The notes under the pieces are model-generated. The model searched no databases. It saw only the letters and a list, made by a program, of their open reading frames with translations, and was not told the origin of the DNA. From contig CM097885.1 in the NCBI GenBank assembly GCA_044892525.1, forward strand, positions 139,934,001 through 139,998,000: a stretch of 64,000 bases of DNA, in the 5' to 3' direction. Both the position numbers and the translations under genes were made by a program. The DNA comes from Schmidtea polychroa (lineage: Eukaryota). Shown here in pieces: positions 3,448 through 37,086 of the stretch (its first letter is position 1; the number at the start of each line of letters is the position of its first letter).

Positions 3448-6400
3448 TATATATAATTTCAAGTGGTGAATTAGAGAGTAGGTGATTTGTAACACAGTGG
3501 CTTGAATTGAAAAGACAAAGTGCCATTTTATTACCAGCATTAGTTGTAAGTTAATTCAGTAACTTATCATGTCATCTATATATCAAATGCATGCATATGG
3601 GTTAATAATATATTCAATCTTTGGCCACTATGCCACACAATCGTAGTATATTCAGATAGCTTGAATGTTCAAAAAATCATTCATCTTAATCTATCCATAT
3701 TAAAACCCTAATTTTAAGTTAACCTTATTAAAAGCGACTTGATTTGCATTTATATTTGTGACTCCGTACAAATCGCTTTAGCAACACAGGGCTCAATCAG
3801 ATTGGCAATATATATTTATAATTAAATTTAATCGGTAGAATACAAGCTCAAAAATCTACAAATTGTCATCAGTTTAGCAATCAAGGTAATATCCTAAATC
3901 TTGAGGGTGTAGAGAAATCAAATAAATTTTTCGCTATTTTCAAAACAAAGGAATCATTTTTGATTTAATTTGAATGATACTTGATTAAAGATTATGTCAC
4001 GCTTCTATGTCCTTAAATCAAATTAAATAACTCCCAACCTGTCGTCTTTAAGTATGGAGTCAACTATTGTTTCATAATTCTAGCAGTGATTTAAAATTTT
4101 GGCTTGTCATTTATTTTAGCATATGAGAGACTGTTTCTAAAAGCAACTCGTTCTTGAAAACAGGTGACCTATACTTTAACCAGTATCAAATTAGTTATGT
4201 ACCACTCATCAGTATCCTCCATGAAAAGGGTTAAATGGTCAACATATCAAAAAGAGAATGCTTCAGCTTGTATTTGTTCTTTTAAATCTTTCAGCAATTT
4301 CGAAAGTCTTCAATTTCATGATTTAAAAAAAAATAAGGATTGAAAATATTATACGTTAGTAAAACTGTATAGGTTACCTCAGTTTTCGAATTTTATTCCA
4401 CAAATATAATAAGGAAAGTAATTTGATCACGTTGTTTCAGTGATTATATGCTTAGATAATTCTTTTGAAATTAAAAATAGCACACTAGGACAAAATTTAC
4501 TGACATATTGATATTTTACACTCGATGTTTATCCCTGGTTTAGTAATTATTTTTAAAATCTTAAAAAATTACAAAGTGATTAATGAAATTGCGAATATTT
4601 CCAAAACTTCAAGGCCATATTTAAGGTCAATGACAACTTTTTTAAGTTTAAGGTTAAATTGTAAACAAGGTAGGTGCAATACAAGTGCATGATTAACAAA
4701 GGCATGTGCAATACATGTACATGACTAACACGTCGAATGTGATATAAGATGTGTGTGTGTAAAATTTCCACTTAATTATTTCTCTTTATTAACAATTTTC
4801 TATACATGTACACACACACTTTCAACTCAAAAACAGATTTTTCATAAATTTTAAAGAAATTTATGTATTTTGATAAAATTTCATAATTTTGTCCTTAATT
4901 ATTGCCCCAAACAAACACACAATAATTCTCTACTCCATAATTTGAATTATGTGTGTAAAAATAAATATTTTAGGTTTTTCACTAATATTTGCAATAATAA
5001 TAATAATAATAGTGATAATAATAATAATCAATAATAAAGTTTAATGGTTGAGTGTGTGCAGTACCCTTACGACTGTTGGGCTAAAATGCGGAGTGGAGAA
5101 AACTGGAGCGAATAGAAAAATAAACCCCGAAAGATAGATGAAATAAAATAAAAATATAAAGTACCATAAAAATCTTACTAGTAAATAGGAAGGAACAATA
5201 AAAGAACAACAAAAGAATAAGAATAAGTAAACAAACTAAATAAAATCCAATAAACCCCTTAAGATTTAGAAATAAAACGGGTTAAGGTACACAGCGGATA
5301 AAATAGAAATAGAATAAGTAAAAAAGTGACAACAAATAAAAGAGAAATTTAAGAAATAAATAAAAAATAAAACTATCTTTAAGTCTAATTAAAACAAAAA
5401 ATTATATTACAATAAAGTAGCAATAAACCTACAGGAAAAATAGGAGGAAAATAATAAAAATAAGAAAATAAATAAAATAATAATAAGAAATAAGTTAAGT
5501 CATTAAAATCTAATATATTATAATAAAAAACATAAAAATGATAATAAATAGTAAAAATACAAGCAGGTAGCGTCCTGATTGGACGAAAAATACTATATAT
5601 GTAACGTGAAAAATTAGACGACAACCACTTTTAATTTTTCACGATTACAGGTAAAATTTTAGAAAAACTTAAAACCACTTTTAATTTTTCACGATTACAG
5701 AGCATAGACTTCAGATATTTCACCGAATTCAGGACTAGAATCGCAAACACTAATTCCAGAGATTTTCAGAACTTACCTTTAATTTAAATTCGATTTCGTT
5801 CCAGTTTTTGAAACTATCAGTAGGTTGATTGATTTATATGTATTAGTTAATTCATTAATGATGAAAAACAAAACTCATTTCGTAAAATAAATTTATTGAA
5901 ATACAAATGGCCTTTTCTTCATGGTGCCGGCGACTGTACCATCTGAGAGCTCCCAGTATGATGTGGACGAGTTGGAAATGTACCACGGTAGAGAACACGA
6001 CAGTGGGAAGGTTGACCTTCTTAAGAAATCCCGAAGATGCTGAAAATGAGAATGTGATATTTGCAGAGAAAGATATTTACCATAGGAGAGATCTACCAAG
6101 GGTATGATGAGGCTGCGGTTGTGTGGAATGAATAACATCATACTTGGAGTCCAAATGATAGGGTCGCCGGGTGAGCTTTATTGATTCATTTATTCTTTAT
6201 TGATTCATTTATTTTTATTGATTCATTTGCTGCTATTTGATTCCTTCATTCATTTTATTATTCATAAATTGTATATTAAATATTGATTTTGTGAAAAACG
6301 AGTCGAACGGTCCCTCATGACGATGCAAGAACGGCGGCAGAGATGATTGCCTTCTTGGGTGGGTCATGAGGGGTGAGGAGACTCCGCAGGTGGAATACTG

Positions 6401-7821
6401 TTGGCAGTGGAATTTCTCACCTCGAGCGCGATCTGATAGAGAATCTTTCGTTTTCTTTCATGAAGTCACGCCGAAGTTTCAGAGTAGATAATGTAAATTT
6501 CCAAAGTCGGAGACAATTTTTCGGATTGCGATCAGTAGTTCGTTGTTGTTAGGAAAACTTGCTTTTCCGTCGAATATTGATAGATGTCTGAGTAGGAATG
6601 GGCGATGAATTGTTAGAGTTTTCACTGGAAGATCTGCTAAGCACTTAAAAATTGAACCCCGAGAGGTACATTGCAGGGACATTAGCGAGTAAACCCATTC
6701 ATTGACTAATTTAGACTTTAGCTTGACATTGAATATCTGATAAAGTTTGGTTTGACGTTGACAGCGGCTCGTCTTAAATGGGAAAGTAAACAAATTTTTT
6801 GATAAGGAAATAAATCACTTGCCGTGAGTCCGAGTGAAGATATCAATAGCGATAGGAGAATCATTAGTTGCCCATGGCCAGATAAATTTCCGACGGGGAA
6901 AATCGGCTGATAATTTGATAAAGTCATCGAACGAGTTGATTGAGAAGGCGGCGGTCGATCGAATGTATTGAGTGGTCTTATCGTGAGTCGACCTAATATC
7001 GAAAATCCAGAATATAGAGTAATTTTTATCTACTGAATCCGCAAGTCACCCACACAATCGAATTTCTTGAGTTTTGGACACACCAACTGAGTACCCTTCA
7101 CAACTAGAGCATCTCTCTACAACTCTACCTCTATAAATCGCTCGCCCACATGTACACATGCATCACACTCAGATTAGGTCACAGTGCACATGTGGATATC
7201 ATCATTACCTAATCATAGGGAGAGAGTCGTACACTGATAACTGCTGGTAGACTACTGGATTGCGTCAGAGAACATGGCAATGCGACGAGAAATTTTTTTT
7301 TCTGTCAGTGTGCAAGTCGCTAGTTAAACGCACCAACATGCATCGTAACGAACCCATCGATAGTTGATGGTATAGATAGACAATCAAATGAACACATAAC
7401 TGCGCCCGATTTAAGCGTCACTATGACGATGTTTATGACGTTAAATTTGAAATAACAAATTTGTAATCCATGATAAAAATTTTAAGCGAGGGTATTATGA
7501 TTTTCTTACAAACCCGAGGGGTCTACATACAAGACGGGGTGTCCCGGTAATTGCCGATTTTCCGTTCATCATACAGCACGCGTAGAATCTAACGACGTAG
7601 CAGCAAAATGAGTAAAATATAATTGTTAAAATTTAACAACGATAATTAAGATAATAGCGTTCATAGTAACGAATTTACCGTTATGCCGTAGTTAAAAATA
7701 GTCAAACCCGTAAAGTAAACCTAAAAGCTAGCATAATGAATTGTTTTCATGAATCCCGTTTTCTTCTCATAAAGTAGTGATGATTACATGGGTCAGTTTA
7801 GATGTTTGAGATTGCATGAAG

Positions 7822-7963
7822 GTGAGTATTTGCCGACGGGGTAGATCGGTAGGCCACTCTTGGATAACTTGGTCGGGGAGGTCTTAAATTTCGTTTTCCG
7901 AACATATGAATAAGACCCCAGCGAATTTTTTTATTTAAAAATAAAAATTTCTTAACAATTTAG
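7822..7963 (+). other. Candidate 142-nt intron in the LTR preceding the LTR ORF
   Basis: Consensus donor AAG|GTGAGT at 7822. Branch-like TTAAC and acceptor TTTAG| lie directly before ATG 7964. The upstream ATG AAG (7816-7821) would join in frame. Confidence 0.55.
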
Positions 7964-8728
7964 ATGAATACTTCAACCAGTTCCGGGAAAACCCTCAGAC
8001 CTTGCTTTTCCTGTGCTGATAAAAATGCCGATATCGCACAGCTCCACTTGTACATCGGGGAATTGAAGAAGAGAATTGACCTCTATGAGGGAACGTGGTT
8101 CTCCCCACCACAAATGAAGGAGGAGAAGAGCAAGATTCTGCGTTTGGAGCACTGCCGTGACAGTCTCCTGGAAGAAAGCAGGTGCCAGAGGTTAACCATA
8201 AAGGCCCAATCAGAGGCACTGCACAAGGTGTATTCCGAATCAGAACTAGCGAAGCGAGTTCGCGAGTACCCGATACAAGATGGGACTAACGTGTTCCCAA
8301 TGCACCACAAATTAGCTGAAACCTCATCAATATCCAGTTGTAAAGGGCATGGCCCACAAATGCCGCCAATTCCCGCCCCAGTCCTTTCAGGCGATCGACC
8401 TATGGCTGGCGGTTCATCGGACCCTATCTTGGCTCCAGTACTCGTGCCACACCTCCTTCAGCCCCCAGCAGAAGCTACACTCCCCCATCGAAAGCGTAAG
8501 CGGCTGACGCGTTCTGAAAAAAATCAGAAGCGGAGGAATGCCATGGCCGCGCTCGAAGCATCGCTATCTGTAGCCACAGCAACTATCAAGGAAATTACAG
8601 TTACCCATTCCATTCCTACAAAGGAAGTATTCCGGGTAGTTCCGGCCGGTAGTATCAAATTCCTCGAAGACCGCCGGCTGCCCGTTGACATCGACGAGAT
8701 GCTCGCAGAGGGAGAAGCATTCTCGTAG
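7964..8728 (+). CDS. LTR-encoded 254-aa protein of unknown function (CxxC + coiled coil, Pro-rich linker, basic NLS-like HRKRKRLTRSEKNQKRR)
   Basis: Open, GC-richer ORF intact in both LTRs (one aa difference), with a diverged homologue at 1633-2205. Confidence 0.75.
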   Translation: MNTSTSSGKTLRPCFSCADKNADIAQLHLYIGELKKRIDLYEGTWFSPPQMKEEKSKILRLEHCRDSLLEESRCQRLTIKAQSEALHKVYSESELAKRVREYPIQDGTNVFPMHHKLAETSSISSCKGHGPQMPPIPAPVLSGDRPMAGGSSDPILAPVLVPHLLQPPAEATLPHRKRKRLTRSEKNQKRRNAMAALEASLSVATATIKEITVTHSIPTKEVFRVVPAGSIKFLEDRRLPVDIDEMLAEGEAFS

Positions 8729-9270
8729 CCAATTCTCTCTCGGGTCTCGATTCCCTGCTATTACGAACGAACTTGAAGAAGCGACGTTATCTCGTGACTA
8801 AACTTTAATGTTTTGCATTTACTTAAACAATGCTGAATGTAATTTGATGTTCCGTTCTAATATAACTGTTCGATTTTCTTTGATTGTGTTAATTGTATGT
8901 ATGATTTGCTACGGTTGAATTGCATGAGAGAAGGATCACGAATATATAGTAGAAACTTAAATGTCGTACCTTTTGGACCAGGGTCAGACTGAATGATGCG
9001 TATAGAATGGGTAAGACCTTCTAAGGCACCGTAGAACCCGAACCGAGAAAGGGTTAGGAGTAGTCCTAACGCAGGGGCTCACCTGCTAACTTTTTCCAAC
9101 CCGTGTGAGCAGTACCAACGTGGAACATCACCACGGGCTCATACGTGGGAATATGCGAACGATCATTTGGAGTGTGTGAGGGAATGGTCTGAGTAGAATA
9201 ATGATACCTGATGCGGATGATAATCATGCCCATACGTTTTCTTTTCCCCCACATACGCCAACATGATTTT

Positions 9271-11320: not shown

Positions 11321-11982
11321 AAGGCCTAAAGTAATAGTGAGATAGCATTCAAGCTACAAGTTGATAACATTTAAATTACTAGTGAAATGGAATATTAAAG
11401 CTAGCTAGAAGTAAAGTGAGTTTGAAATATGGTATTTGAATTTAGAAAGGATTAAACGAGCTCGTGGGAGGTAATAATGAAATTTTTTTCAGTGAGAAAG
11501 AGAAACTGAAAAGGAAAACGAATTAAAGAGATAATGAAAATAAAGAATAAGTGATGAGTAAAAGAGGAAGGTGATTAATTAATTAAAAGGGATCCCAGAT
11601 AAGTAGACAAAGTTCTACAGAATTTTTTTGGTTTAAACCGGTTAAACGAATTTTGTTTTGGGTACAGAGTAGAACCAAATAAGGGGAAACAGAGATGAAA
11701 GATTAAGTAAAATAGCGGAACCGCGTAAAAGGATTAAGAAAATATGGGAGGTAATAAGCAGTAACTGACAACGACCTATCGATATTATAAATGCTAACTA
11801 TAGATAATTTATACGACTATATAGATAATTGTTACTACCCCAAATAGATAATTTAAAATCGACGAAAAATATGGGTTGATGGGTAATTATATTCCGCGAA
11901 GAAGTATATGAGGGGAAATGAAGAGAAGTATAACAGAGGCCCTAAAACGGTGTCTGTGCTTGAATGTGGCAAAAAGGAATGA

Positions 11983-14900
11983 TTGATTCGTGTAAGCAAA
12001 GGCAACACGATATCATATTTTCATTGTAGACATCCATCCAACCAAGTCAATTCAGAACCAGCTCAAGAGGAATCCAGAGAATATACAAACAACCCAGGAA
12101 AAGCAATTCAGAACCCGCACAAAGGAAGACAATATCAAAACCGAACTCGACCAATTCAGCAGACGCTAACCGTAGAAAATCCACGTGAAAAGACAGAAAA
12201 GAGTAAAAGGAAAATCACGGATAAACCCAACCTTAGATCTTCAAGTAAGCCAGGAGACGTATTATTTTCAGGAGACGAATTAGATCAACTCAAAAGAGGA
12301 CGATCATTTAGGCAGCAGAGAGGAATATCACAAGGAGCAAAAAGACCCCACAAAACACCGATATACGATCAAGAAAACCCCACAGCCGGACATACGCCCA
12401 GCCGATCTAGAAGTAGAGAAAGTCTATCCGATATAACAAACAACCTAACCGGGTCAACAGAAGAATTATCCGTCCATAGCTTAGCCACATCGCTGGAAAA
12501 TTTAAAAGAAATAATAGAGTTTCAAGAACCAATCAAGATGAATGTGGTAAAAACCGACGAGTATAAGGAAAAATTTAGAGGCGAACCATTCAACGGGAAT
12601 GCGAACAAGTTGGCAACGTTCATAACCAATTTTGAAGTCTATATTGATGTGTGTGGATGGACATCCGAAGCAATTAGTAAACGAATGCCTCTGTTTTTGT
12701 GCGATAGCGCACTCGAAGTATATCTGGAAGCAAAAGAAAGAAATACGAAATTAGACAATTGGGAAAACATCAAAACATTTTTGAGAAAAACATTCGGAGC
12801 CAGCAAACCGATAAACCAAGCGTTAGGTGAACTGGCAAGTAGAAAACAAAGAGCAAACGAGTCAATTACGTTATACGCAAGTGAATTGCGAAGATTGGCA
12901 AAGAAGGCCATGAACGGAAACTTGCCGGAGGAAAACTTAATTGGGTACTTCATAGAAGGACTACGCCGAGAAGAGGTAAGGGCCTCGGTGGGATGTCAAA
13001 TGTGTAAAACACTAGAGGAAGCTATAGATTGGGCCACAAGATGCGAACTACACCTCCCAGCACAAATGAACGTCATGCAAGAGGAGGGAAGAATCGCAAC
13101 AGCAACGGTGAAAACGGAAAATGGGGATAACAATAATCATGAACCCAAGATGAATCAGTTTATACCAGGAGCACATCAAATTTTCAAACCACCACAAGGA
13201 CGATCAAACGGGAATAACAGTGAACGCAACAACTCGAACAATGGGAACAACTTTAATAATCGACGAAATATGAACGATAACAAACAATGCCGAACATGCG
13301 GTAAACCAGGACATTGGGATAGAGATTGTTACCGAAACGCAAATTGCAATAGGTGTGGACGACGAGGACACACGGAAAATATATGCCAATCAAGAGGATG
13401 TTTTAACTGCGGGCAACTAGGTCATATCTCAAGAGACTGTCGAGAAAGGAGCCAACAACAACGACCACCACAGCGAAATAATAACTATGCACCAAATCCG
13501 CAACGACAAAGTAATCCTAGTGAGGGAAAGCAAATGAATGTGATGCAAGAAATTTCACAAATGAAGCAGATGATGCAACAAATGATGAGACCGAGACAAG
13601 AGCAAGTACCACAACCAACCCAGAATATACGCATGATGAGAAGCACCGAGAATCTTAACAATTATGAAGTGCAACAACATGCACAAGAATGGCAAAGACT
13701 ACAAGCTGAAGAAGAAAGGATAAAAAGAGAGCGAATTCAGCAGCGACAAGAACAACCACTACGAATAAATATGATGAGGATGGTAAAGGAGATAAAGGAG
13801 CAATATTGCTACAATTACGGTAAAAATCCAAGAGTTGTACCTATGAGCGAACCAGAGAAACTGAAGGAAACAATTACAGCAGCACAAAAGGAAAATTCAA
13901 CAACACCGCTAAAAGGAAATCAGAGAATTCAGAAAATATTTTGGAAAAAGATAAAAGATAAAATCGAAAGAGAAAATGAGCAAACAAAAACAGAAGCAGA
14001 AGCAGAAAATAACGAAAATGAAAAACAGATTAATCATCTAAAGCATAATATGATACGAGAATTAGACTCAGAGGAGCTAACGATACTCGAGAACAACAAG
14101 TTAAAGAAAGTACCAAGAATGAGAAATTTACGAATTAATATGATGAGGACAACAAAGAAGGTGTTGTCAACAGATGACGATGAGGATTATGTGAGTAGCC
14201 TTGGTGGAGAAATGTTACAGTTAAATGAAAATATCGACCAACTGAGAGAAAAGATCGGAGCAGATGAGGATGAAAGAGAAAGCGACGTGACAAGCGAAAG
14301 CGAAGACGAGAATATCGAAATGAAATTGAGAAAAGAAAGAGAAGAAGCGATAAAACAAGTAAAGGAAATACTTCCAGTGGTGGTAAGAAACCAGGAATTC
14401 ATTGACATCATACCATACCGACGCTTCATACAAAAGATAATGAAACTAGAAAGAAACGAAAAAGACCTAATACCAAACGAGGAAAAAGTGATAATAAAGA
14501 AGTATATGGAAAAAATGAAACAAGCGGAGACAACACGCTATGTAATAAAAATCGGAACGAGTAAAGGACTCGAGAGAATATGGATAAAAAATGCAGTCAC
14601 AGACGAGCTTTTTGATTGGATAAGAGAACATTTGGGCAGCTCGAGAAAGAAAGAGTATTTATATCAACATCAAGGAGAACAAATTAAGCCAGACATGCAC
14701 CTAATAGATGCATTGATCTGGCCAGGAGAAACTCAAATATTGAAATTGTATAAAGAGAAACAACCAGCAAATATTCACGAATGGGCTAAAGACGCCAAGG
14801 CCGAGTACGATTTTAACATCAAGCTGAAGCTGGAACAAATAAAACAATGCACCTTGCGACGAAATCTAGATAAATTAATCAAGCAAATCCAAGAACAAGT

Positions 14901-17900
14901 TGAGGATAATTGGGATTTGCTCATAACAAGACGAACTGCAGACATGCATGAGCTACTGAGCCGATTACGAGATACAGAATTGCTCAGGATGAGCGATTGG
15001 AGAACCATAAATTTGATCCACAAATATGGAAGGTTGAAAGAAACGCAACCGCAGAAATTAGAAATAACCATATGGTTACCAAACGAGGAGAAACGACGAA
15101 TAAAGATGAGTAATCAGAGTACGGTGGATGACTTAGTAACCAAGATAAACCAAGAGATAACGGAAAAAGTACAAAGCGAGAGTAGCGACGGGATGATAGA
15201 TGACGTAGTCATGATGTACGATAAAATAATATTACGGGCCGAGGACGACACCTCGCTAAGCGAAATGGGAATGTGGGATAATCATCAAATCATCAGAATA
15301 TTGCCCATGGACGAATTCCGAACAAGAGATATAACATACCAGAAAGAAATACGAGACAGGATGAAAACGCTATATCAAAAATCAGTAGAGATAATTGAAA
15401 TTCATCAACAGTGGCTAAAAGAAAAAGGGCTTCAAGGAAAAATAAAGAAACTAAGTGTTAGATCTTGCAGACGAACCCCATGGGAAAGGACGTGGAATGC
15501 GGAAAACAAAGAATGGGAAATCAGGAAAGGGATTTTCGTGGAAACAGACATTGGCGAGATAGAAAGCGAATCAGAAGAAGAGGAAGATGAACCTCCAAAA
15601 TACGAAGAGGACGAAATAGAATCGACATCGGACGACGAAAGCGAAACGGATGTTACATCAGAAAGTGAAACGGAAACCAGACATATTCATGCGATGAGAA
15701 AGAAAGAACGCGAATATGCCGATATGGACAGCGAAGAAGCGATGGAAGCTCGAGAACGAGAAGAGAAGGAAAGATATAAACAATTAGGTGATATCTTAGC
15801 AACGGGAACAAAAAATCAAAAACGTCAAGTAATAGCATTGGCTAACATCATCCTAAAGACATCAGAGAATATCCACAATCTAAGAGAAATGGCGAAAGCG
15901 ATTGAGGAATACAGACAATATAACGAATGGTACCCAGAACAGCTAGAACAAATTATTAGGAAATGGAGAAACCAAGAATGGGCACAAGATACCCAGGAAA
16001 GGTATCGTATCCGAGTCAAGTATCCCGACAAAAGCATTGAGGATACAGAAGTACATCCAACAACAAAGATCAGAGAGTTAAAAAAGAAATTAGCATACGA
16101 AACTCCATTTCACCTACAACTATTCGGAAAATCTCTGGATGATAATGCAGATGTCGGAATAACACCCATGAGATTGGGGGAGATCAATGTATTGACAATG
16201 GCAGAAACATTGGGAAAACCGATTAAAAGGAAGAACAAATCCAGTAAACCTACGAAAGGTAGCTTGAGTACACCAAGCCCTAACAAAGTGGCAAGTAAAA
16301 CGAATGAAACCGAGGAAATCGAGGAAATTATATTGGAAGACAGCGATGAAGGAGCTGGAGAAAGATCACCAATTCTGGTAAGATGGCCGACAGGAGCCGA
16401 AATATGGACAACAAGCCAACCGTCAACTAGCTATCAGCAGCCAAATAAGCTGAGTATCGAGGAAATTATCGATAATACAACAGAAACCGAAACCGACGAA
16501 CAATTCCAACGACAGAAAGGACTAACGAAAGCAACACCAGAAGGTCAAACGGACAAAATAATAGACGAATGGAACGAATGGCTGAGAAACAACGATAGCT
16601 CATTGCCAAGAACGGATAACGAGAGGAACCCGAATTATGAAAATACAAGGGAAGCCGGAACAATGATGGAAAAACGGGCAAAAGGGAGACCCAAGAAGCA
16701 AGGAGAAAAACCGGAATTTAAAACTAGAGAACAACTGAAACAAGAACAAGGACAAGTCAGATTAGAGAAACTAGATAAAATAGTGTGGGATCTAAAAGAG
16801 GCCCAGCCAACTATCGAAAGAGGCGAAAAATGGATACGAGAGCTAGTAAAAGATATGCTAATAATAACGAACCCACAATTGCGACGGTTATGGCAACGAA
16901 AAGTAGCAAGCGTAGACGCCAGACAACTATGGAATACAATATCCGGAATAATTCCGAAATTAATCAAAGAGAAGACAAAAACCACTAAAACCGATTGGGA
17001 AGAGACAAGAAGAGTAATTGAACAATTAACTTTAAACGCAAACGACGACGAACATCATTTAGTAGTGTTAACGTATCTAATGTACAATTTGATGGGATTA
17101 GCAGCAAGGAAAATACCTAACAAACAATTCGCAAATCATGTAGAAATGACCGTCACAATCATTGAAAATACAATCGAACCACATATCATCCGCGCCGGTG
17201 GGTGGAAAAGACTCATACAAGCGCCACGAAAAAACGAGCAAGAGAGATCAATGCAAATTCGGTTGAAGAAGTTACTAAATGAGCTAGAATGGGAATTGCC
17301 ATTGAAAGACCCAGCCAGCAGAAAAGCGTCGATTAATTCACTAATGATGACCATGATGATATGGATGCTCTGCACCAGTGGAGCCGCGGGATTTACTATT
17401 TACGACTGTGACAATTCGATAATAGGAGAAAGATACTCCCTGAGAGATATAGAGGAATGTAGACAGGCGTCTCCGAATAAATTAGATATAGTAAAAAAGA
17501 AAGTCTCCTATCACGTATACCAAGAATCAGATTTCATTAGAACGCAAGCTAGAGAATGCGTAGTATCGAAGAAAGTGTTGGCATATTACTGTGGACAATA
17601 CTCATATTCAACCCTCATATTACCTGGATTAGATAAAGAAATAGTACCTATACAACGGGAAGACTGTAAAGAGCTTTTTAGAACCGGAGCGATGAGAATC
17701 AGGGATGGAGTAACAATACACGGACAAAGCGGAATGATCAAGACAGAAAGTATCTATGTCGCCGGACGAGTAAAATCAACTGATGGATCATGTAACGGAG
17801 GCACATATACGATCAGAGGAGAGGTGATATCAGGAGTAGTAGTAATTGAGTCCTACACAGTGGAGTTGAAGGAATACGAAGCACAATTCGACGCAAACAA

Positions 17901-20900
17901 CTATCAAATGAAAACCAACCCAGCATGCAGAGCTACGGAAAACGTGTGTAGAACGGGAATTTCGACTATAATATATGAAGCTAACACCCAAAAATGCCGA
18001 CTCCAATTGTTAAAAAGTGCTCTATTCAATGAAGTAAAAGGAGAAATTTACGAAAACGAGGATGACGATGAAGAGAATGGAAACGTAAGGATGCGAAATG
18101 GGAAACCAGTTCCGCCATCCCCCAAAGAAAAGAGACTCACAACCCAAAAAACACCAACGGCATTAATTACAGATGACCCAGATATCGGCATGAGATTCAT
18201 TAGAGAAAAAGAGACCACCAAATGTGACAGCATAGTATACCGGACGAACTACGCAGGTATCTACATGTCAAGGCAAGTAATAGACCGAGCAGTGGGAAAG
18301 GTAGCAACAGAGGACGTAAAATTGTACCTGTACGCCAATAACAAAATGGACTTTTTATTTCACCGAGGACAAACGACAATGCAAAAAGTGTATTACGATC
18401 TTATACAAAATGACTGTTCATTGAATAAAGAGATACTAAAAACAAAATTAGCCATCGCAATAACACACCCAGATAACACAATGCCATCACTCCCGTTACC
18501 GGATGGACATTTTGGTAGAATGGTGGGAGAGGTAATGTATACATATGCATGTACCAAGACATTTGCGCGACTGCCAAGAAAGCCCACAATCCCACCAGGG
18601 AAATGTGCAAACGAGTTAGAAATTAGTTACAAGGGGCGAAACAGATTCGTTCAACCCGTCACTAGGATAATGAACCCAATTGGATTTTACCCGAACACCT
18701 TTAACTGTTCAAATGCATACGGACCGTTATATGAAAAACCCGATGGGAAATGGATAATGTTACCAGTAAAAACCGAAGTACAAGAGCCTAAAAAGTTTGG
18801 ACTAATAGAACTCGCAACAGAACAAGATTTCAAACCAATTGATGTGTCAAAAGCAGGTATGTACTCACCAGAGGATTTAGAAACGGCACGATTAAACGTA
18901 TTATTCCCAGCAAGACGGGAATCCATTCTATCGAATATGGTTACCATAACTGGGGGAACGAATTTCCAGTCAGGCCCCAATTACGAACTATTATTGTCAC
19001 CTGATCATTTTCAACAAGCCACGTCAAACATGATGAAAGCAATGTGGGGAAGATTTCTAGTATTCGGTCAAATGATGGCGGGAATATTGGGAATCATTCT
19101 TATTATCCAGATTGTCAGAGTAATATTAACTCAAATGTTAGCGTGTTTTGATATCTATAAGAGAGAAAAGAAGGTAAATTGGAAATTGATAGTAGGCTTT
19201 CTACCATTTTTGGCAAAAACAATGGTGTTGCACGGTCATTCTAAGGACATACACAGAATAAAACGATTGATCAAAATACTGACAAAAATAAAAGGAACTG
19301 ACGAGGAAGTCGGTAGACGATTTCGGAAAACAATGTATGATGAAGCAACAAGGACGCAACTGAAAAAGAACAAACCAAAATTCTTAGACAGATTTAGGAA
19401 TCGATCAAACAGCAGCGATAGTGATGATGACGACAACGGGAATGACAAATACCCATATCCAAGTAGAAACCCGAATGAAAAGCCAATAGAAACAGCACCA
19501 TATTGGGAGAAAGAAAAAACAAATACCTGGATAGCCAACGGAAGTTATATACCACCAGATATCGTTGGACAACAAACAGCTTTGACCATGACACAAAATA
19601 TGTATCCACAGTTACCAAGTCAACCAGGGATGAACTATATGCCGACCCGAAGAACGAAAAGTGTAGACCAAGCGGACGACGTAAGAACGATAGCAGTAAT
19701 GAGTTCACCAGGAGGTGCGGCAGTAACAGTCATGATCCAAATCAACGGGAAAGAGACAAGCGCAATGATAGATACCGGAGCAAACGTATCAGCAATAGCA
19801 ATAAACCAAATACCCAGTAAATGTTGGAAAGATATCGAACAAACAACTATCCATATTATTGCATGCAGTAAAGAAACCGTAGACGTAGTAGGAAGATGGT
19901 GGACTACGTTACGATATCAGGATAACGAAATTGAAACGTATCTAGCGGTGATACCCAAACTGAGTGAACCATGTATAATCGGAACGGATTTAATGCCGGA
20001 ATTGTTTAAGGAGGTAGTAATCGATTTAACAACAATGTGTCTAAAAGACAAAATGGGTAGAATATGCAAGATGAACGCAATAATTAGATGTCCGGAGAAA
20101 ATAATTGTACCCGCAAAATCACAGATGATATGTCAAATAAAAGTGGATGCAGGAATGGAAGGAGAAGTCATTTTTGAGCCAAGCAAATCATTCGAAAAAC
20201 GACGAGAATTACCATTAGCAAGAGAAATAATAACAATAAATGAAGACGGGGAAATACCAATTAACATCACAAATTTCGAGGAAGAAGACAAGATCATATA
20301 TGAAAATGAAAGATTGGGTAGATTGACACCCATGATAGACATCGAATTACCAAAAATCATCAACGAAACAACGAAAGCTGACGAATTATGGATAATTGAT
20401 AGCACCTTGCTAACGGAAAAAGAGAAGGAAAGACTTCAACAATTATTGATAGAATATAAAGATATATTCGCAATTTCGGATTTAGATTTGGGAGCATGCG
20501 ATGTTACATTACACGCAATACCATTAATAGACGAAACGCCAATCGCACTACGTCCATACAAACTAGCAGAGAAGCAAAAAGAGATAGCCGAAGTCGAAGT
20601 ACAAAAAATGCTAGATGCACAAGTGATCGAACCAAGTTGTTCGCCATGGCAATTTCCAGTAGTCATGGTGAAGAAAAAAGACGGTACTCAGAGATTCTGT
20701 ATCGATTATCGGAAATTAAATGCAGTAACAAAAAGAGACACATACCCGTTACCAGACATCAATGAGATGTTACTTATGTTACAGGGGGCCGCATATTTTA
20801 CATCTTTAGATCTAAAAAGTGGATATTGGCAGATCAAAGTCAAGGAGGAAGACAAAGAGAAAACAGCATTCACACTGGGCCGAGATCTATACCAATTCAG

Positions 20901-23900
20901 GAAAATGCCGTTCGGACTGACCAATGCCCCAGCATCATTCCAGAGATGTATGAATTTTGTCACACACGGGATCAAGCAGTGTATGGTATATATTGATGAT
21001 TTATTAATATATTCAGCAACATTCGAACAACATTTGGAAGATATCAGAAACGTGTTCGTTCGATTACGACAATGGAAACTGAAACTTAAACCATCCAAAT
21101 GTGATTGGGCAAAAGAAAAGGTTACGTTCTTAGGACACATAGTGTCAGCAAAAGGCAAAGAACCAGATCCAAGAAACATAGAAAAAATAAAAACATGTCC
21201 AGCACCAAAAACTGTCACCCAAGTTCAAGAATTTCTCGGATTATGCGGATATTATCGAAAATTCATCAAAAACTATGCAGGTATTGCGAAACCAATACAG
21301 GAATTAGTGAAAAAGGATATTTCATTTATTTGGGGTGCAGAACAACAAAAAGCGTTTGAAACATTGCGCGATAAATTAATCGAAGCCCCAATACTAGTAC
21401 ATCCTGATTTCAAGAAACCATTCCTATTAGCAACAGATGCAAGTGGATATGCAGCCGGAGCAATATTGGGACAACTCGACGAAGAAGGAAAAGAAAGAGT
21501 GATTGGATACTACAGTAGAACGTTTAAAAAACACGAGAAAAACTATTCCGTAACCGAGAGAGAAGCGTTAGCAATCATACAAGCAATTAAACACTTTCGA
21601 TATTTGTTATGGGGACACGAAATATGTATCACCACGGATCACCAACCATTAGTATGGCTTGGTCAACACAAAGAAGCTTCAAGTAGATTGATGCGATGGG
21701 CAATGCAGTTACAAGAATATTCACCGTTCATAAAATTCAAAGCGGGAAGAGCGAATGCCAATGCGGATTGTATGTCCAGATTTATCTTTCCAGATTTAGT
21801 AGATCACGAAATGCAACGAATATGTCTGATGGTAGCAGAAGATTTAGATTTTTGCCAATTACGGAAAGACCAACAAGAGGATACAGAGTTGAAGCAAATC
21901 ATTGAATATGTGAAAACAGGGAAAGCAGAGGTATATGAGAAAGATCAAAAATTGAAGGAGCATATGGATAAACATCGACATCGATATATTATCGAGAAAG
22001 ATTGGTTATTGATAATGGATGGCGAGAAAAGACTGATGTGCATTCCCGAGAATAGACGTAAAGATCTACTAACACAATACCATGACGGAAGACTCGGAGG
22101 ACATATGTCATCTAAAAAGACGTTGGCACGAATGAAACAAAAATATTTTTGGCCTACATTGACCGAGGATGTAGCGGAATGGGTGAAAAATTGCATAACT
22201 TGCGCAACCAGAAAAAACACGGGAACAAAATGGAAGGCACCATTAAAGCCTATGCCAGTGCCAGCAGAACCAATGACAATGATATCAATGGACGTAGTCG
22301 GTCCACTACCAGAATCAGATAGAGGAAATATATATATATTGGTAATCACAGATTATTTGACAAAATTCCCCGAAGCATTCGCAACGGCAGATCAGAAAGC
22401 AAGAACAATCGCAAAAATATTAGTAGAGGAAATATGTTGTCGATATGGAACGCCGAAACAAATACTGACGGATCAAGGAACGAATTTCATGAGCGAAATA
22501 ATGAGCGAAGTCACCAACTACTTCAAGATCGCAAAATTAAGAACATCACCGTACCATCCACAAACTAATGGTATGACAGAAAGATTCAATGGAACACTGA
22601 TTCAAATGTTATCAAATTATGTCGATCGTCATCAACGAGACTGGGATGAATATATAAAATTATGTCTAATGGCTTACAGAATGTCGATTCACGCGTCCAC
22701 AAAGATGAGTCCGTTCAAGTTGATGTACGGCAGAGAATGCAATATGCCAATGGATTTAGAATATCAGCCACCGATATCACAATACATGGAAATAGACGAT
22801 TATGTAACCAAGTTCAAGGAAAGAATGCAGGAAATCTGGGAAACCGCAGGATTGAATATAAAATTTTATCAAGAAAGTTACAAAGAGTTACATGATAGAA
22901 AGAAAAACGTCAAACAGCATACGTTTCAAACAGGCGAATGGGTGATGATTGAAACACCAGAATTAATTCCAGGAACCACCAAAAAATTACAACGAAACGG
23001 TAAAGGGCCGTATGAGATTCTATTCGTCGGAGAAACTAATGTAAGAGTACGATTAGTGAACAACCCTTTTACAAGACCAATATACGTAAATGTTGCACGA
23101 TGTAAGCCAATTCCGAAAACCGCCACCAGTCAGCCAGAAGGACGTACACTAACGACAAGATCACAAACGTATAGAATAAACATGTTACAGCAAATAAACG
23201 AACCAACAGGTAATCGATTAGGGTTACAACCATCAGAAGCCGAGAAAATCATAAAGGAAGTAAAAGTTAAAATGCCCGGATGGGCAGAAGACAGATTAGA
23301 TTTTGAGATATTGGGAGGTCTGCTAACAATGATCGAAAATTATGCAAACCGAGAAAGAACACACCCATTGCTCAGGGTAGTTAAAAGTCAATGGCCTATA
23401 TTATTCACGATCACAGACCATTACGGAGACACACCCCTGCACAAGCTTTTAAAGGTGGGTAGTAACGAACAGATATTAGAAACAATTGAAGCATTTCGCG
23501 ATTGTAACATTTCGACAGATCAAGAAAACAACCAAGGTTACACTCCACTAATGATAGCAGCCAATCGGGATAAAGCTAAAGATATTATCATCGCATTACT
23601 TGAAACTGGGTCAAAGATAACCACACAAGATCACAACCAGGAAAATGCATTACATCATGCAATCGAAGGGAAAAGTACGGAAGCCTTCATAATCTTAGTA
23701 GATCTATTATCGTACGAGGATAATAGAGAGATAGGAAACATGTATGACGGGCTATTAACTGCAATCAAAGAGAAATTAACAACAATTGCTGGAATACTAA
23801 TTGCATGGAGGAACCCGATAAAAAACGATTATATGGTAGATATAAACGAAACATTTACCAAAGGAGAAAACACCTTGATGAGAGAAGCGATGAGAGGACA

Positions 23901-26418
23901 TCACCTATTCGAAATTCCAAATCAACTACTACAACGTGGCATAAAATTCTCAAATCACAAAGACGAACAACTAATCAGAAAACGAATTACCAACTTCGAA
24001 AAAGCTATATCTCAATTTACCGATAAAGTACAAGTAAAATTTTGGGACACCGTGAGTGTTTTGCATATGATGGAAACTATGAACAACATTCGAGAAACTT
24101 ACCTAAGCATTATTCAAGTTCTAACGGCAGAGGAACGCATTAATAATTCGAACAAGAAAAAGATAAAAAGGAAGAAAGTAAAAGCAGGAGAGTCTGAGGA
24201 ACAAGTCGATCAACCAATAACCGATATAGCAACAACAAGTAAACCAAAGACAATAAACTCCGACCAAGAGATAGTAGTACGTAAGGCTAAAGAAGTATTC
24301 TTTGAAGAAATGCAAGATCTATCCGATGAAGCGATACTAGCAAAAATAACCAAAACAGTACACACCTACGCAAGAGATCAGACCACAAATCTAGACATAG
24401 GAAAAATAAAAACATTTATACCACTAGCATTCACCTTACCAACAAAAGACTCAAGAACACCATTACAACAAGCCATTTTAGCAGCAAAAGAGAACAGAGC
24501 AATAACCATCATAAGAATCCTCAGAGACTTCGGAGAAGAATCTAATGCAAAAAATGGACAAGGAGAAACAGCAATGATGTATGCAGCCATAACAAATATA
24601 CACCCGAAAACATTACATATACTACATCAATCAGGTTCGAGACTTGACGAAAGATCAAACGAAGGAAATTCTACCATGGATTGGGCAACAATACAACCAA
24701 ACTTGGAAATGATTAGATTCATTTGTAAAAATGCTACAAGAACTGAGGTAGAAAATATCTGTAAAAACACGTCACAGTTCCAATGGAACACGATACGGAT
24801 GAACTTAGAAGCCATGAAGTTGCTGCTAACATGGAGAATACCACAAAGCAATAAATATGCAATAAATATAAATGAGTTCTACGAAAACGGAGAAAATGCT
24901 ATGGTTAAAAATACACTAACAAAAGGAGGAACTCCGAAAATCATAATGATCGTATTAAACAGGGAAGATCTCAAATTCACGCAGAATCTAAACGAACAAA
25001 AGCGAATCGGGAAACATCGTCGGATACAATTAAGAGAATTAGTGAAAGAATGGAATAGAAAGAGACATGTAGCAACAGGCAGAAAGGAGTTCGAATTCGA
25101 AGCAAAATTAGCAAGAAACAGAGTGCTAACGGCATACCGCAGATTGTTGAATGATATAAATGTCGAGGACGACATTTTAAACGATAGCGGGGGAGATAAA
25201 GACGATAAAGACGATAAAGACGACAATAATAATGAAAAAGGTCGAAACGGGAATAAAGAGAAAGAGAAATCAGAGGAGAATAATCAAGAAAATAACGACG
25301 CGAGTAGGAAAAAAGAGGAAAATAACCCGAGAAACCGAATGAAGCAAGAAGAAAAGACGAATAGTGGAAAACAGAGGGTATGCCTACTTTTTACCAACAA
25401 AGAAATGGAGACAAATATGATGATAATGATACTCGTACTAACAATGGTGGAAATGATAACAGCCCAGGGAGGAATGAGAACGATAAAAGAAGCCAAAGAA
25501 ACGGAAAATAAGGACAACAAAGAGGAAGAACTAAAACAAGAAAAGAAAAAACAAGTACAAGAGCAGCAATGGGATCTAAAAGAAGAATGGGATTTAAAAG
25601 AAAGGTGTATATTAGGAAGATGTATGTCTAGAGCTTATCAGAGACTAGTGTTAAAAAATGAAGATGCAGAACCAATAACGGAAGTAAGAATACAAGAAGC
25701 ATACCGAAATCGAGAAGGAAAGAGAATAACGAAAGTTAAAGGGAAGGAAGTACACCTGGGAAAAGGAGGTGAGGTAGTGATAACGCAACTCCAGCCAAGA
25801 AAAGAACACAAAGTCTGCATCGCAAGATTAAGACCGGGTGAAGACTGTCTACAATATGTAATACAGCAACAACCTCCAAAAGAATACACAATATGCATCT
25901 GGAGAAAAGATACAGCGAGAGAATGTCGACGATACCCTGGGAAAAGAGGGAAGAAAAGAAAAATCGATGATGAAAAAGATGAGCAAGGAAAACGCAAGAA
26001 AACCAGTGAGAAACATCAAGACAATTATGTATCCGAAGAGGAGATGGAGAAAATACAAAAAATGGCAAAGGAAGGTATGAACGAGGAAATAGCAAGAATA
26101 CGAGGAATGATGAAAGGAAATGACAAAGACGGTAATCTAAAAAGCACAGAAGCAATATCAACAATAACGAGCAAGGAAGAAGCGGAAATTATAAGCATAA
26201 AACAGATGATGTGGATCAGCGGCATAATAATAACAGGGGCCTTTTTAATCATAACGGGGGGGACAATAAAAATAATCAAAGATAGACGGCATCACGGAGA
26301 ACTAGAAATGGCCAGAATAAGAAATTTCCAACATCGTGTAAAACGACCAAGTAATATCAAGCAGGAACAGTGGGTGGAGGCCTGGAATGCTCAGCGCCCT
26401 CCAAGCTCACGTATATAG
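11983..26418 (+). CDS. gag-pol: E1 single polyprotein (~4,811 codons open; first ATG 12538): Gag-Ubl x3-AT-hook-Bcl-2-like-glycoprotein-PR-RT-RH-IN-ANK-FN3/TM
   Basis: Three CCHC knuckles (13288-13440), protease IDTGA (~19768), RT YIDD (20989-21000), RNase H TDASG (~21433), integrase HHCC, DDE core and GPY motif (22080-23110). No internal stop. Confidence 0.97.
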   Translation: MIRVSKGNTISYFHCRHPSNQVNSEPAQEESREYTNNPGKAIQNPHKGRQYQNRTRPIQQTLTVENPREKTEKSKRKITDKPNLRSSSKPGDVLFSGDELDQLKRGRSFRQQRGISQGAKRPHKTPIYDQENPTAGHTPSRSRSRESLSDITNNLTGSTEELSVHSLATSLENLKEIIEFQEPIKMNVVKTDEYKEKFRGEPFNGNANKLATFITNFEVYIDVCGWTSEAISKRMPLFLCDSALEVYLEAKERNTKLDNWENIKTFLRKTFGASKPINQALGELASRKQRANESITLYASELRRLAKKAMNGNLPEENLIGYFIEGLRREEVRASVGCQMCKTLEEAIDWATRCELHLPAQMNVMQEEGRIATATVKTENGDNNNHEPKMNQFIPGAHQIFKPPQGRSNGNNSERNNSNNGNNFNNRRNMNDNKQCRTCGKPGHWDRDCYRNANCNRCGRRGHTENICQSRGCFNCGQLGHISRDCRERSQQQRPPQRNNNYAPNPQRQSNPSEGKQMNVMQEISQMKQMMQQMMRPRQEQVPQPTQNIRMMRSTENLNNYEVQQHAQEWQRLQAEEERIKRERIQQRQEQPLRINMMRMVKEIKEQYCYNYGKNPRVVPMSEPEKLKETITAAQKENSTTPLKGNQRIQKIFWKKIKDKIERENEQTKTEAEAENNENEKQINHLKHNMIRELDSEELTILENNKLKKVPRMRNLRINMMRTTKKVLSTDDDEDYVSSLGGEMLQLNENIDQLREKIGADEDERESDVTSESEDENIEMKLRKEREEAIKQVKEILPVVVRNQEFIDIIPYRRFIQKIMKLERNEKDLIPNEEKVIIKKYMEKMKQAETTRYVIKIGTSKGLERIWIKNAVTDELFDWIREHLGSSRKKEYLYQHQGEQIKPDMHLIDALIWPGETQILKLYKEKQPANIHEWAKDAKAEYDFNIKLKLEQIKQCTLRRNLDKLIKQIQEQVEDNWDLLITRRTADMHELLSRLRDTELLRMSDWRTINLIHKYGRLKETQPQKLEITIWLPNEEKRRIKMSNQSTVDDLVTKINQEITEKVQSESSDGMIDDVVMMYDKIILRAEDDTSLSEMGMWDNHQIIRILPMDEFRTRDITYQKEIRDRMKTLYQKSVEIIEIHQQWLKEKGLQGKIKKLSVRSCRRTPWERTWNAENKEWEIRKGIFVETDIGEIESESEEEEDEPPKYEEDEIESTSDDESETDVTSESETETRHIHAMRKKEREYADMDSEEAMEAREREEKERYKQLGDILATGTKNQKRQVIALANIILKTSENIHNLREMAKAIEEYRQYNEWYPEQLEQIIRKWRNQEWAQDTQERYRIRVKYPDKSIEDTEVHPTTKIRELKKKLAYETPFHLQLFGKSLDDNADVGITPMRLGEINVLTMAETLGKPIKRKNKSSKPTKGSLSTPSPNKVASKTNETEEIEEIILEDSDEGAGERSPILVRWPTGAEIWTTSQPSTSYQQPNKLSIEEIIDNTTETETDEQFQRQKGLTKATPEGQTDKIIDEWNEWLRNNDSSLPRTDNERNPNYENTREAGTMMEKRAKGRPKKQGEKPEFKTREQLKQEQGQVRLEKLDKIVWDLKEAQPTIERGEKWIRELVKDMLIITNPQLRRLWQRKVASVDARQLWNTISGIIPKLIKEKTKTTKTDWEETRRVIEQLTLNANDDEHHLVVLTYLMYNLMGLAARKIPNKQFANHVEMTVTIIENTIEPHIIRAGGWKRLIQAPRKNEQERSMQIRLKKLLNELEWELPLKDPASRKASINSLMMTMMIWMLCTSGAAGFTIYDCDNSIIGERYSLRDIEECRQASPNKLDIVKKKVSYHVYQESDFIRTQARECVVSKKVLAYYCGQYSYSTLILPGLDKEIVPIQREDCKELFRTGAMRIRDGVTIHGQSGMIKTESIYVAGRVKSTDGSCNGGTYTIRGEVISGVVVIESYTVELKEYEAQFDANNYQMKTNPACRATENVCRTGISTIIYEANTQKCRLQLLKSALFNEVKGEIYENEDDDEENGNVRMRNGKPVPPSPKEKRLTTQKTPTALITDDPDIGMRFIREKETTKCDSIVYRTNYAGIYMSRQVIDRAVGKVATEDVKLYLYANNKMDFLFHRGQTTMQKVYYDLIQNDCSLNKEILKTKLAIAITHPDNTMPSLPLPDGHFGRMVGEVMYTYACTKTFARLPRKPTIPPGKCANELEISYKGRNRFVQPVTRIMNPIGFYPNTFNCSNAYGPLYEKPDGKWIMLPVKTEVQEPKKFGLIELATEQDFKPIDVSKAGMYSPEDLETARLNVLFPARRESILSNMVTITGGTNFQSGPNYELLLSPDHFQQATSNMMKAMWGRFLVFGQMMAGILGIILIIQIVRVILTQMLACFDIYKREKKVNWKLIVGFLPFLAKTMVLHGHSKDIHRIKRLIKILTKIKGTDEEVGRRFRKTMYDEATRTQLKKNKPKFLDRFRNRSNSSDSDDDDNGNDKYPYPSRNPNEKPIETAPYWEKEKTNTWIANGSYIPPDIVGQQTALTMTQNMYPQLPSQPGMNYMPTRRTKSVDQADDVRTIAVMSSPGGAAVTVMIQINGKETSAMIDTGANVSAIAINQIPSKCWKDIEQTTIHIIACSKETVDVVGRWWTTLRYQDNEIETYLAVIPKLSEPCIIGTDLMPELFKEVVIDLTTMCLKDKMGRICKMNAIIRCPEKIIVPAKSQMICQIKVDAGMEGEVIFEPSKSFEKRRELPLAREIITINEDGEIPINITNFEEEDKIIYENERLGRLTPMIDIELPKIINETTKADELWIIDSTLLTEKEKERLQQLLIEYKDIFAISDLDLGACDVTLHAIPLIDETPIALRPYKLAEKQKEIAEVEVQKMLDAQVIEPSCSPWQFPVVMVKKKDGTQRFCIDYRKLNAVTKRDTYPLPDINEMLLMLQGAAYFTSLDLKSGYWQIKVKEEDKEKTAFTLGRDLYQFRKMPFGLTNAPASFQRCMNFVTHGIKQCMVYIDDLLIYSATFEQHLEDIRNVFVRLRQWKLKLKPSKCDWAKEKVTFLGHIVSAKGKEPDPRNIEKIKTCPAPKTVTQVQEFLGLCGYYRKFIKNYAGIAKPIQELVKKDISFIWGAEQQKAFETLRDKLIEAPILVHPDFKKPFLLATDASGYAAGAILGQLDEEGKERVIGYYSRTFKKHEKNYSVTEREALAIIQAIKHFRYLLWGHEICITTDHQPLVWLGQHKEASSRLMRWAMQLQEYSPFIKFKAGRANANADCMSRFIFPDLVDHEMQRICLMVAEDLDFCQLRKDQQEDTELKQIIEYVKTGKAEVYEKDQKLKEHMDKHRHRYIIEKDWLLIMDGEKRLMCIPENRRKDLLTQYHDGRLGGHMSSKKTLARMKQKYFWPTLTEDVAEWVKNCITCATRKNTGTKWKAPLKPMPVPAEPMTMISMDVVGPLPESDRGNIYILVITDYLTKFPEAFATADQKARTIAKILVEEICCRYGTPKQILTDQGTNFMSEIMSEVTNYFKIAKLRTSPYHPQTNGMTERFNGTLIQMLSNYVDRHQRDWDEYIKLCLMAYRMSIHASTKMSPFKLMYGRECNMPMDLEYQPPISQYMEIDDYVTKFKERMQEIWETAGLNIKFYQESYKELHDRKKNVKQHTFQTGEWVMIETPELIPGTTKKLQRNGKGPYEILFVGETNVRVRLVNNPFTRPIYVNVARCKPIPKTATSQPEGRTLTTRSQTYRINMLQQINEPTGNRLGLQPSEAEKIIKEVKVKMPGWAEDRLDFEILGGLLTMIENYANRERTHPLLRVVKSQWPILFTITDHYGDTPLHKLLKVGSNEQILETIEAFRDCNISTDQENNQGYTPLMIAANRDKAKDIIIALLETGSKITTQDHNQENALHHAIEGKSTEAFIILVDLLSYEDNREIGNMYDGLLTAIKEKLTTIAGILIAWRNPIKNDYMVDINETFTKGENTLMREAMRGHHLFEIPNQLLQRGIKFSNHKDEQLIRKRITNFEKAISQFTDKVQVKFWDTVSVLHMMETMNNIRETYLSIIQVLTAEERINNSNKKKIKRKKVKAGESEEQVDQPITDIATTSKPKTINSDQEIVVRKAKEVFFEEMQDLSDEAILAKITKTVHTYARDQTTNLDIGKIKTFIPLAFTLPTKDSRTPLQQAILAAKENRAITIIRILRDFGEESNAKNGQGETAMMYAAITNIHPKTLHILHQSGSRLDERSNEGNSTMDWATIQPNLEMIRFICKNATRTEVENICKNTSQFQWNTIRMNLEAMKLLLTWRIPQSNKYAININEFYENGENAMVKNTLTKGGTPKIIMIVLNREDLKFTQNLNEQKRIGKHRRIQLRELVKEWNRKRHVATGRKEFEFEAKLARNRVLTAYRRLLNDINVEDDILNDSGGDKDDKDDKDDNNNEKGRNGNKEKEKSEENNQENNDASRKKEENNPRNRMKQEEKTNSGKQRVCLLFTNKEMETNMMIMILVLTMVEMITAQGGMRTIKEAKETENKDNKEEELKQEKKKQVQEQQWDLKEEWDLKERCILGRCMSRAYQRLVLKNEDAEPITEVRIQEAYRNREGKRITKVKGKEVHLGKGGEVVITQLQPRKEHKVCIARLRPGEDCLQYVIQQQPPKEYTICIWRKDTARECRRYPGKRGKKRKIDDEKDEQGKRKKTSEKHQDNYVSEEEMEKIQKMAKEGMNEEIARIRGMMKGNDKDGNLKSTEAISTITSKEEAEIISIKQMMWISGIIITGAFLIITGGTIKIIKDRRHHGELEMARIRNFQHRVKRPSNIKQEQWVEAWNAQRPPSSRI
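14530..16200 (+). other. Three ubiquitin-like (beta-grasp) domains in the E1 polyprotein (~14530-14760, ~15052-15306, ~16000-16200)
   Basis: For example RYRIRVKYPDKSIEDTEVHPTTKIRELKKKL...HLQLFGKSLDDNADVG and LEITIWLPNEEKRRIKMSNQSTVDDLVTKI...DDTSLSEMGM follow the ubiquitin strand-strand-helix pattern. Confidence 0.6.
16672..17230 (+). other. AT-hook (KRAKGRPKK) followed by a Bcl-2-like domain in E1
   Basis: The BH2-like IIENTIEPHIIRAGGWKRL parallels Bcl-xL YLNDHLEPWIQENGGW, preceded by a hydrophobic alpha5-like helix HLVVLTYLMY. Confidence 0.7.
17341..19230 (+). other. env: Signal peptide + chuvirus(Jingchuvirales)-type glycoprotein ectodomain + TM in E1
   Basis: FTIYDC...YSLRDIEEC, CDSIVYRTNY, YANNKMDFLF...NDCSLNKEILKTKLAIA, GRMVGEVMYTYAC, CANELEI, GMYSPEDLETARLNVLFPA and TM ~19051-19140 match the Cys/motif pattern of chuvirus glycoproteins. 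Confidence 0.8.
23419..24960 (+). other. Two blocks of ankyrin repeats after the E1 integrase
   Basis: GDTPLH, GYTPLMIAA and QENALHHA in block 1; SRTPLQQA, GETAMMYAA and GNSTMDWA in block 2. Confidence 0.9.
25405..26418 (+). other. C-terminal type I membrane module of E1: signal peptide, FN3-like ectodomain, TM, short tail
   Basis: SP METNMMIMILVLTMVEMITAQ, FN3-like VVITQLQPRKEHKVCI, TM MMWISGIIITGAFLIITGGTIKII. Confidence 0.65.
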
Positions 26419-37084: not shown

Positions 37085-37086
37085 TT

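Follow-up and report, generated by a model that had tools for sequence, protein, structure and literature searches.

The window analysed here is a 64,000-nt stretch of the Schmidtea polychroa genome (contig CM097885.1, positions 139,934,001 to 139,998,000), and its central feature is a large retroelement, E1, read on the forward strand. E1 measures 30,584 nt, has TG...CA ends and a 4-nt target-site duplication, and carries LTRs of 4,190 nt that are 99.93% identical to each other. At least 150 genome matches to E1 were scored, all of them 93-100% identical. Judged from its sequence, E1 is a young Burro-type giant LTR element of ~30.6 kb; the type was assigned from the published layout description, with which E1 agrees in length, LTRs, a single polyprotein and the order BCL2 - env - PR. 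Another element, E2, occupies positions 36035-49548. The features of interest are as follows.

5074..9263, + strand: 5' LTR of E1, 4,190 nt, 99.93% identical to 31468-35657
11983..26418, + strand: single reading frame of E1, 4,811 aa (Gag - Ubl-like repeats - Bcl-2 fold - signal - Env - PR - RT - RNase H - IN - ankyrin - second signal-like helix - second TM)
14530..16212, + strand: two or three ubiquitin-like repeats 5' of the Bcl-2 domain, weak (Pfam, two of three segments)
16672..16698, + strand: AT-hook-like basic motif with a KGRP core, read from the sequence
16747..17232, + strand: Bcl-2-fold domain, modelled span, confident from about nt 16830 (AF2, Foldseek)
17035..17058, + strand: BH1 equivalent without the canonical NWGR (alignment A2)
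17176..17205, + strand: BH2-like motif ending in GGW (GGW invariant, 15/15)
17206..17340, + strand: 45-aa linker with a basic helix at 17251-17286 (helix in the AF2 model)
17332..17343, + strand: candidate viral-protease site INSL, resembling E1 domain-junction motifs
17341..17391, + strand: predicted internal signal peptide of Env (h-region 17341-17373, c-region 17374-17391, predicted cut after 17391)
17392..19149, + strand: Env, gB/chuvirus-type fusion glycoprotein, ectodomain and TM (PF24664, E 6.8e-72; TM 19054-19149)
19729..22560, + strand: protease, RT, RNase H and integrase, in frame and 3' of the Env TM (Pfam)
25405..26277, + strand: second internal signal-like helix (25405-25467), ectodomain and TM (26188-26277), no Bcl-2 ahead (from the sequence)
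31468..35657, + strand: 3' LTR of E1, pair of the 5' LTR
39353..40057, + strand: E2 counterpart with AT-hook, Bcl-2-like domain, linker, signal helix and Env start (PF00452, E 2.4e-6)

Pfam matches in the E1 frame were found in the order Gag, zinc knuckles, PF24664, protease, RT, RNase H, integrase and ankyrin repeats. The first of the three Ubl-like segments had no Pfam match, and the others matched ubiquitin (E 0.013) and Ubiquitin_4 (E 0.13). The first Met of the frame is residue 186 (nt 12538); 185 open, Met-less codons precede it (11983-12537), and the second residue of Gag, counted from this Met, is not a Gly. Elsewhere in E1 we observed a 165-aa RING-finger ORF directly 3' of the 5' LTR (9721-10218), tandem 80-nt repeats in the leader (10723-11321), a separate TRAF-like ORF with RING, TRAF zinc finger and MATH domains (26985-28424) and, in each LTR, a 254-aa ORF with no Pfam match (7964-8728 and 34358-35122). 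No BIR domain was detected among 12 proteins scanned by Pfam.

The initial annotation had described 16672-17391 as an AT-hook and Bcl-2 domain whose tail anchor may double as the signal peptide of the following glycoprotein. The layout on which this was based was confirmed: the segment is a stop-free 240 aa with KGRPKK at its start, EPHIIRAGGW at 17176-17205 and a hydrophobic segment at its end, the gap from GGW to the h-region is exactly 45 residues, and the glycoprotein (PF24664) comes next in frame. The segment corresponds to residues 1564-1803 of the 4,811-aa polyprotein and is no protein of its own. E2 has the same layout, as also stated there, with the AT-hook (39353), BH2 (39803), helix (39980-40015) and Env (40040) in the same order and 51 residues between GGW and the helix. 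In the E2 copy in the window gag is in a different frame from the rest; other E2 copies have one frame of 3,051-3,090 aa. A 777-aa frame with no Pfam match lies 3' of the E2 polyprotein (46272-48605), and a frame at the same position in another locus, L107, appears exonuclease-like by eye. Comparisons were made with two alignments, A1, which has 9 members, and A2, whose 15 natural in-genome sequences represent three lineages and about ten families.

An AT-hook has an R-G-R-P core with basic flanks. E1 has K-G-R-P and no Pfam match, and E2 has R-G-R-P with a PF02178 match below the cut-off (E 0.57). Because an AT-hook-like motif was present in 5 of 11 sequences examined, in the E1 and E2 lineages only, and a similar one was found in P0021, an outside relative that lacks Bcl-2, it is no part of a fixed module.

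For the Bcl-2 domain, Pfam gave E 0.039 on E1 alone, which is below the cut-off, while PF00452 was matched by E2 (E 2.4e-6) and by 9/9 members of A1 (best E 1.2e-6). All 60 listed matches of the A1 profile to PDB sequences were Bcl-xL or Bcl-2 (best E 7e-5). An AF2 model of the trimmed E1 core (pLDDT 73, pTM 0.69) matched Bcl-xL, Bcl-2 and Bak in Foldseek with prob 1.00 and TM 0.48-0.63; the listed matches were all of the Bcl-2 family, with a best E of 2.3e-3 (none ≤0.001), and the top viral match was the ASFV Bcl-2 homolog. When the linker and helix were included, the model was poor (pLDDT 47, Foldseek E >0.1). The modelling thus indicates that the Bcl-2 fold in E1, a helical bundle around a central hydrophobic helix, is real. 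The Bcl-2 core showed dN/dS of 0.02-0.42, i.e., purifying selection, in 6/6 family pairs.

In the BH2 motif (W-I-x-x-x-G-G-W), GGW is present in all 15 sequences, and E1 has His in place of the first Trp. At BH1, the Trp-Gly was kept in 0/15 sequences, and the Gly position is D, E or N in every one. In Bcl-xL, the G138A substitution was reported to abolish both Bax binding and rescue (PMC2148190). Since the BH1 Trp-Gly is lost in all of the aligned sequences, classical anti-apoptotic action of the E1 Bcl-2 domain appears doubtful. Some viral Bcl-2 mimics function without NWGR, so its loss makes an anti-apoptotic role less likely but does not exclude it. E1 shares with cellular Bcl-xL and Bcl-2 and with viral mimics (the ASFV Bcl-2 homolog, gammaherpesvirus vBcl-2, poxvirus) the helical-bundle fold and a BH2 with GGW. 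It differs from them in that NWGR is lost, the domain is internal to a polyprotein and the C-terminal helix ends in a signal-peptidase pattern with no free basic tail.

A single hydrophobic segment lies between BH2 and Env in 15/15 in-genome sequences and in 10/10 outside relatives checked, and the Bcl-2 domain is therefore without an anchor of its own. The n-region of this helix is basic (net charge +1 to +4), and its end has a constant register, three residues ahead of the Env Y/F-D-C motif, in 15 copies. By hand rules, the residue at -1 was G, A, S or C in 15/15 in-genome sequences and that at -3 was A, S, T or C in 13/15; E1 has Ala/Gly at -3/-1. The E1 helix is moderately hydrophobic and a marginal membrane span (KD(19) 1.40), and the E2-lineage helix has an uncharged run of 12-14 residues only. 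Pooled over 6 family pairs, pN/pS of the helix was 0.19. The first PF24664 profile position to be matched falls on the helix and is 3 in E1, 4 in E2 and 5 in family L099.

These properties did not bear out the suggestion that the helix is Bcl-2's own tail anchor. The E1 helix aligns to PF24664 positions 3-20, although the PF24664 seed may itself include such elements, and its end is a cleavage region, small and polar, that has no basic tail. In contrast, stand-alone Bcl-2 genes of the same genome have a C-terminal helix followed by a basic tail and a stop. A tail anchor is a single C-terminal hydrophobic segment, which the helix would become only after the predicted cleavage, and it is inserted post-translationally from a free C-terminus; the E1 helix is followed by ~3,000 in-frame residues.

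To place the helix in a wider context, we used a HMMER profile search of 1.84 billion representatives, which returned 50 matches, where word-index protein searches returned none. Fourteen were counted as relatives with at least 140 residues ahead of Env, and the remaining 36/50 were left out as short fragments, as having no Env motif or as stand-alone Bcl-2 proteins. The helix was found in 14/14 of the counted relatives, and the Bcl-2 domain was present in 6 and absent in 8. In two of the latter, P0023 and P0019, Gag, helix, Env and protease are in one frame. Such Gag-helix-Env relatives contradict the idea that dual use of the helix is the reason for the Bcl-2/Env linkage. The presence of the helix in relatives without Bcl-2, its place at the start of PF24664 and the fixed -3/-1 register argue that it belongs to Env and needs no Bcl-2. 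It is very probably Env's signal, with cleavage predicted from the -3/-1 pattern. Among the outside sequences, P0054, P0023, P0026 and P0021 have several tandem aspartic-protease-like domains 3' of Env, and P0054 (4,844 aa) has additional signal-like and TM segments. P0029, an Env-Pol retroelement polyprotein, was deposited under a bacterial genome-bin name and is likely contamination.

A second signal-like helix with a TM lies 3' of the integrase, with no Bcl-2 ahead of it, in 4/4 in-genome families read to the end. A signal-like helix, ectodomain and TM 3' of integrase were also observed at 45578-46297 and in L112, L107, L100, P0026, P0029 and P0054. The second ectodomain region matched no Pfam family at E <0.01. 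From its sequence features, this unit is likely a second surface protein, placed last in the polyprotein.

The Bcl-2 and Env trees contained the same three lineages (FastTree, 10 rows, unrooted). Their agreement fits one ancient gain, which explains the constant position of the Bcl-2 domain without the dual-use argument. The domain may have been gained once, ahead of a signal that was already present, and may then have lost its own anchor. As a lead only, the sequences hint that the anchor of the captured gene was lost at the site that the Env signal came to occupy. The distance from GGW to the helix is 26 residues in L099, and about 25 residues separate GGW from the anchor in a host Bcl-2 gene (inferred exon), so the L099 spacing would fit descent from a tail anchor equally well. 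When the signal helix was compared with true Bcl-2 anchors, p ≤0.05 was obtained in 1/36 comparisons, and no signal was seen that the helix derives from such an anchor. The basic helix of the linker, compared with the pre-anchor helix of stand-alone Bcl-2 genes, gave p ≤0.05 in 5/36 comparisons, uncorrected, and in none with E1.

With respect to possible donors, a host Ubl-plus-Bcl-2-like gene had a best E of 0.8-1.5 against the element profile, which is not significant and gives no support for it as the donor. The best non-element match to this profile among the loci tested was L119 (E 6.5e-9). L119 (4051-4512 and about 7455-7580) is likely a host Bcl-2 gene, whose inferred last exon encodes an anchor. 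Short stand-alone Bcl-2 genes with true C-terminal anchors make up two multi-copy families (L076-L081, L089, L090 and L083-L088); one of the two has a small intron-like break, and both are probably carried by another mobile element.

Taken as a whole, the sequences are probably best explained by an internal signal of Env whose cleavage leaves a Gag-Ubl-Bcl-2 precursor tied to the membrane, likely temporarily. Insertion would be co-translational and would place Env in the lumen while Bcl-2 stays in the cytosol; the predicted cut by host signal peptidase follows the helix, after 17391. The resulting product, residue 186 to 1803 (~1,620 aa, Gag-Ubl-Bcl-2), would end in the helix and so be tied to the ER membrane. 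A basic cluster is found just behind the Env TM, and together these would return the chain to the cytosol, leaving Pol hanging on Env's tail. The element protease or an intramembrane protease would then likely trim the leftover helix, which would end the tie. We consider a membrane tie of the precursor after cleavage likely. However, the helix stub may be too weak to hold a 1,600-aa precursor, because of the E1 KD(19) value and the short E2-lineage run given above. Of the proposal that one helix anchors Bcl-2 and translocates Env, one part was upheld: the helix is the only such segment, it is likely the Env signal, and its cleavage would tie Bcl-2 to the membrane. The tie would concern the Gag precursor rather than free Bcl-2, and the proposed reason for the linkage was not supported.

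It is possible, though we think it rather unlikely, that the element protease instead cuts between Bcl-2 and the helix, at INSL in E1, to give a soluble and possibly nuclear AT-hook/Bcl-2-fold protein, with the helix serving as a signal only. INSL resembles the E1 junction motifs MNVM, MNAI, ICLM and INML and is kept in 30/30 near-identical copies and in the sister family L097, against which the linker pN/pS was 0.03. Furthermore, the AT-hook-like motif suggests nucleic-acid binding, and the flavivirus capsid is freed in this manner (PMC7601889). The junction-motif pattern occurred 12 times versus 3.2 in shuffles, with a motif that was chosen after sequence inspection. In a matrix built from 7 presumed junctions, INSL ranked only 131st of about 4,790 positions, where 3/7 training sites rank lower when left out and one of the seven, at residue 186, probably marks the start Met and no cut; a rank like that of INSL is expected by chance most of the time within a 45-residue linker. 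Other lineages have no conserved INSL equivalent, the AT-hook is missing in 6/11 sequences, and a cut at maturation would be compatible with an anchored precursor.

A lasting, anchored and classically anti-apoptotic Bcl-2 is unlikely. The fuller version, in which a functional anti-apoptotic Bcl-2 has the helix as its true and permanent tail anchor, the helix doubles as the Env signal and this dual use explains the linkage, seems to us improbable. It is consistent with the position of Bcl-2 directly ahead of the helix in 15/15 in-genome sequences and in those outside relatives that carry Bcl-2, with a distance from BH2 to the cut of 41-76 residues where GGW was read, with the near-canonical spacing in L099 and with the weak likeness of the linker's basic helix to the pre-anchor helix of stand-alone genes (5/36, uncorrected; E1 none). 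Yet the same helix is found in 8 relatives without Bcl-2, it resembled true anchors in 1/36 comparisons, and one ancestral insertion gives the constant position too. The BH1 Gly, whose substitution in Bcl-xL (G138A) removes Bax binding and rescue (PMC2148190), is moreover replaced by D, E or N throughout. Expression of Env mainly from its own start codon on a spliced or internal RNA, with the helix as an ordinary N-terminal signal peptide and Bcl-2 rarely joined to it, is very improbable. In its favour, Met then Lys stand at -30/-31 in 4/11 sequences (L097, L031, L091, L110). Against it, E1 has Leu (TTG) there in 30/30 copies, L094 has Thr, 7/11 lack the Met and no clear splice acceptor is close by. 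The Met at -30/-31 may, from the sequence, be a relic Env start. No joint over 16400-17900 was present in contigs of four runs presumed to be RNA (one run covers 30/30 bins), which we did not count as evidence.

The order of domains around the proposed Env signal has precedents. Planarian Burro elements have already been described with Bcl-2 directly ahead of an Env in the same frame; they have a BCL2-like motif, a Ubl motif ahead of it and an in-frame env between BCL2 and protease (PMC6431247). E1 shares with these giant Gypsy-like LTR elements of dugesiid planarians (Burro/GYPSM1) a length of ~30 kb, long LTRs, one ~4,800-aa polyprotein, the Ubl/SUMO-like and BCL2-like parts, env between gag and pol, ankyrin repeats and TRAF/MATH cargo (PMC6431247); in E1 the TRAF-like gene differs in being a separate downstream ORF. 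The consulted part of that report names the BCL2-like motif and does not mention the helix, the topology, the AT-hook or the BH1 loss (PMC6431247). We found no published tail-anchor or signal role for the helix behind Burro-type Bcl-2 in the literature; Grohme 2018 and Lee 2026, including their supplements, may already discuss the helix.

Similarly, errantiviruses with an HSV/gB-type Env and GAG-ENV-POL order have been described in Platyhelminthes, Nematoda and Bryozoa, the Env being flanked by a signal peptide or TM and by a TM (PMC13524379). E1 shares both the gene order and the flanking segments, and the L099 Env is near-identical, by eye, to the Smed_errantivirus_2 row in the supplement (PMC13524379). 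As far as its consulted main text goes, the words 'Bcl', 'Burro' and 'polyprotein' are absent, and the effect of the signal on the upstream protein is not treated (PMC13524379). The use proposed for the E1 helix corresponds to that in the flavivirus anchored capsid (C-prM) and HCV Core-E1, where a cytosolic structural protein carries a C-terminal helix that acts as the signal for the glycoprotein following it (PMC7601889). There is no homology between these and E1, whose upstream piece comprises about 1,620 aa with a Bcl-2 fold at its end. The anchor is removed by NS2B/NS3 in flaviviruses and by signal peptide peptidase in HCV (PMC7601889); removal is proven for those systems, and for E1 it is a proposal by analogy.

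The membrane-tied precursor allows a more speculative picture, to which we give little weight. E1 may invert the retroviral design: its Gag would lack a membrane-binding part at the N-terminus and be held at the membrane from the C-terminal end, through the Env signal stub. The Bcl-2 fold, without its BH3-binding signature, might then lie next to the membrane as a matrix-like or host-modulating layer, to be packaged and taken along into the next cell, with Pol on Env's cytoplasmic tail.

What is new here is a testable processing map for a single-frame Gag-Env-Pol retroelement, in which Gag would be tied to the membrane in a flavivirus-like manner. Also added is evidence that selection keeps the Bcl-2 cargo despite the loss of residues on which classical anti-apoptotic Bcl-2 depends. 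Protection of planarian stem cells by Burro1 via an IAP-like gene has been reported (Lee 2026, cited in PMC13465017), which makes the role of Bcl-2, as a second death-pathway cargo, a fair question.
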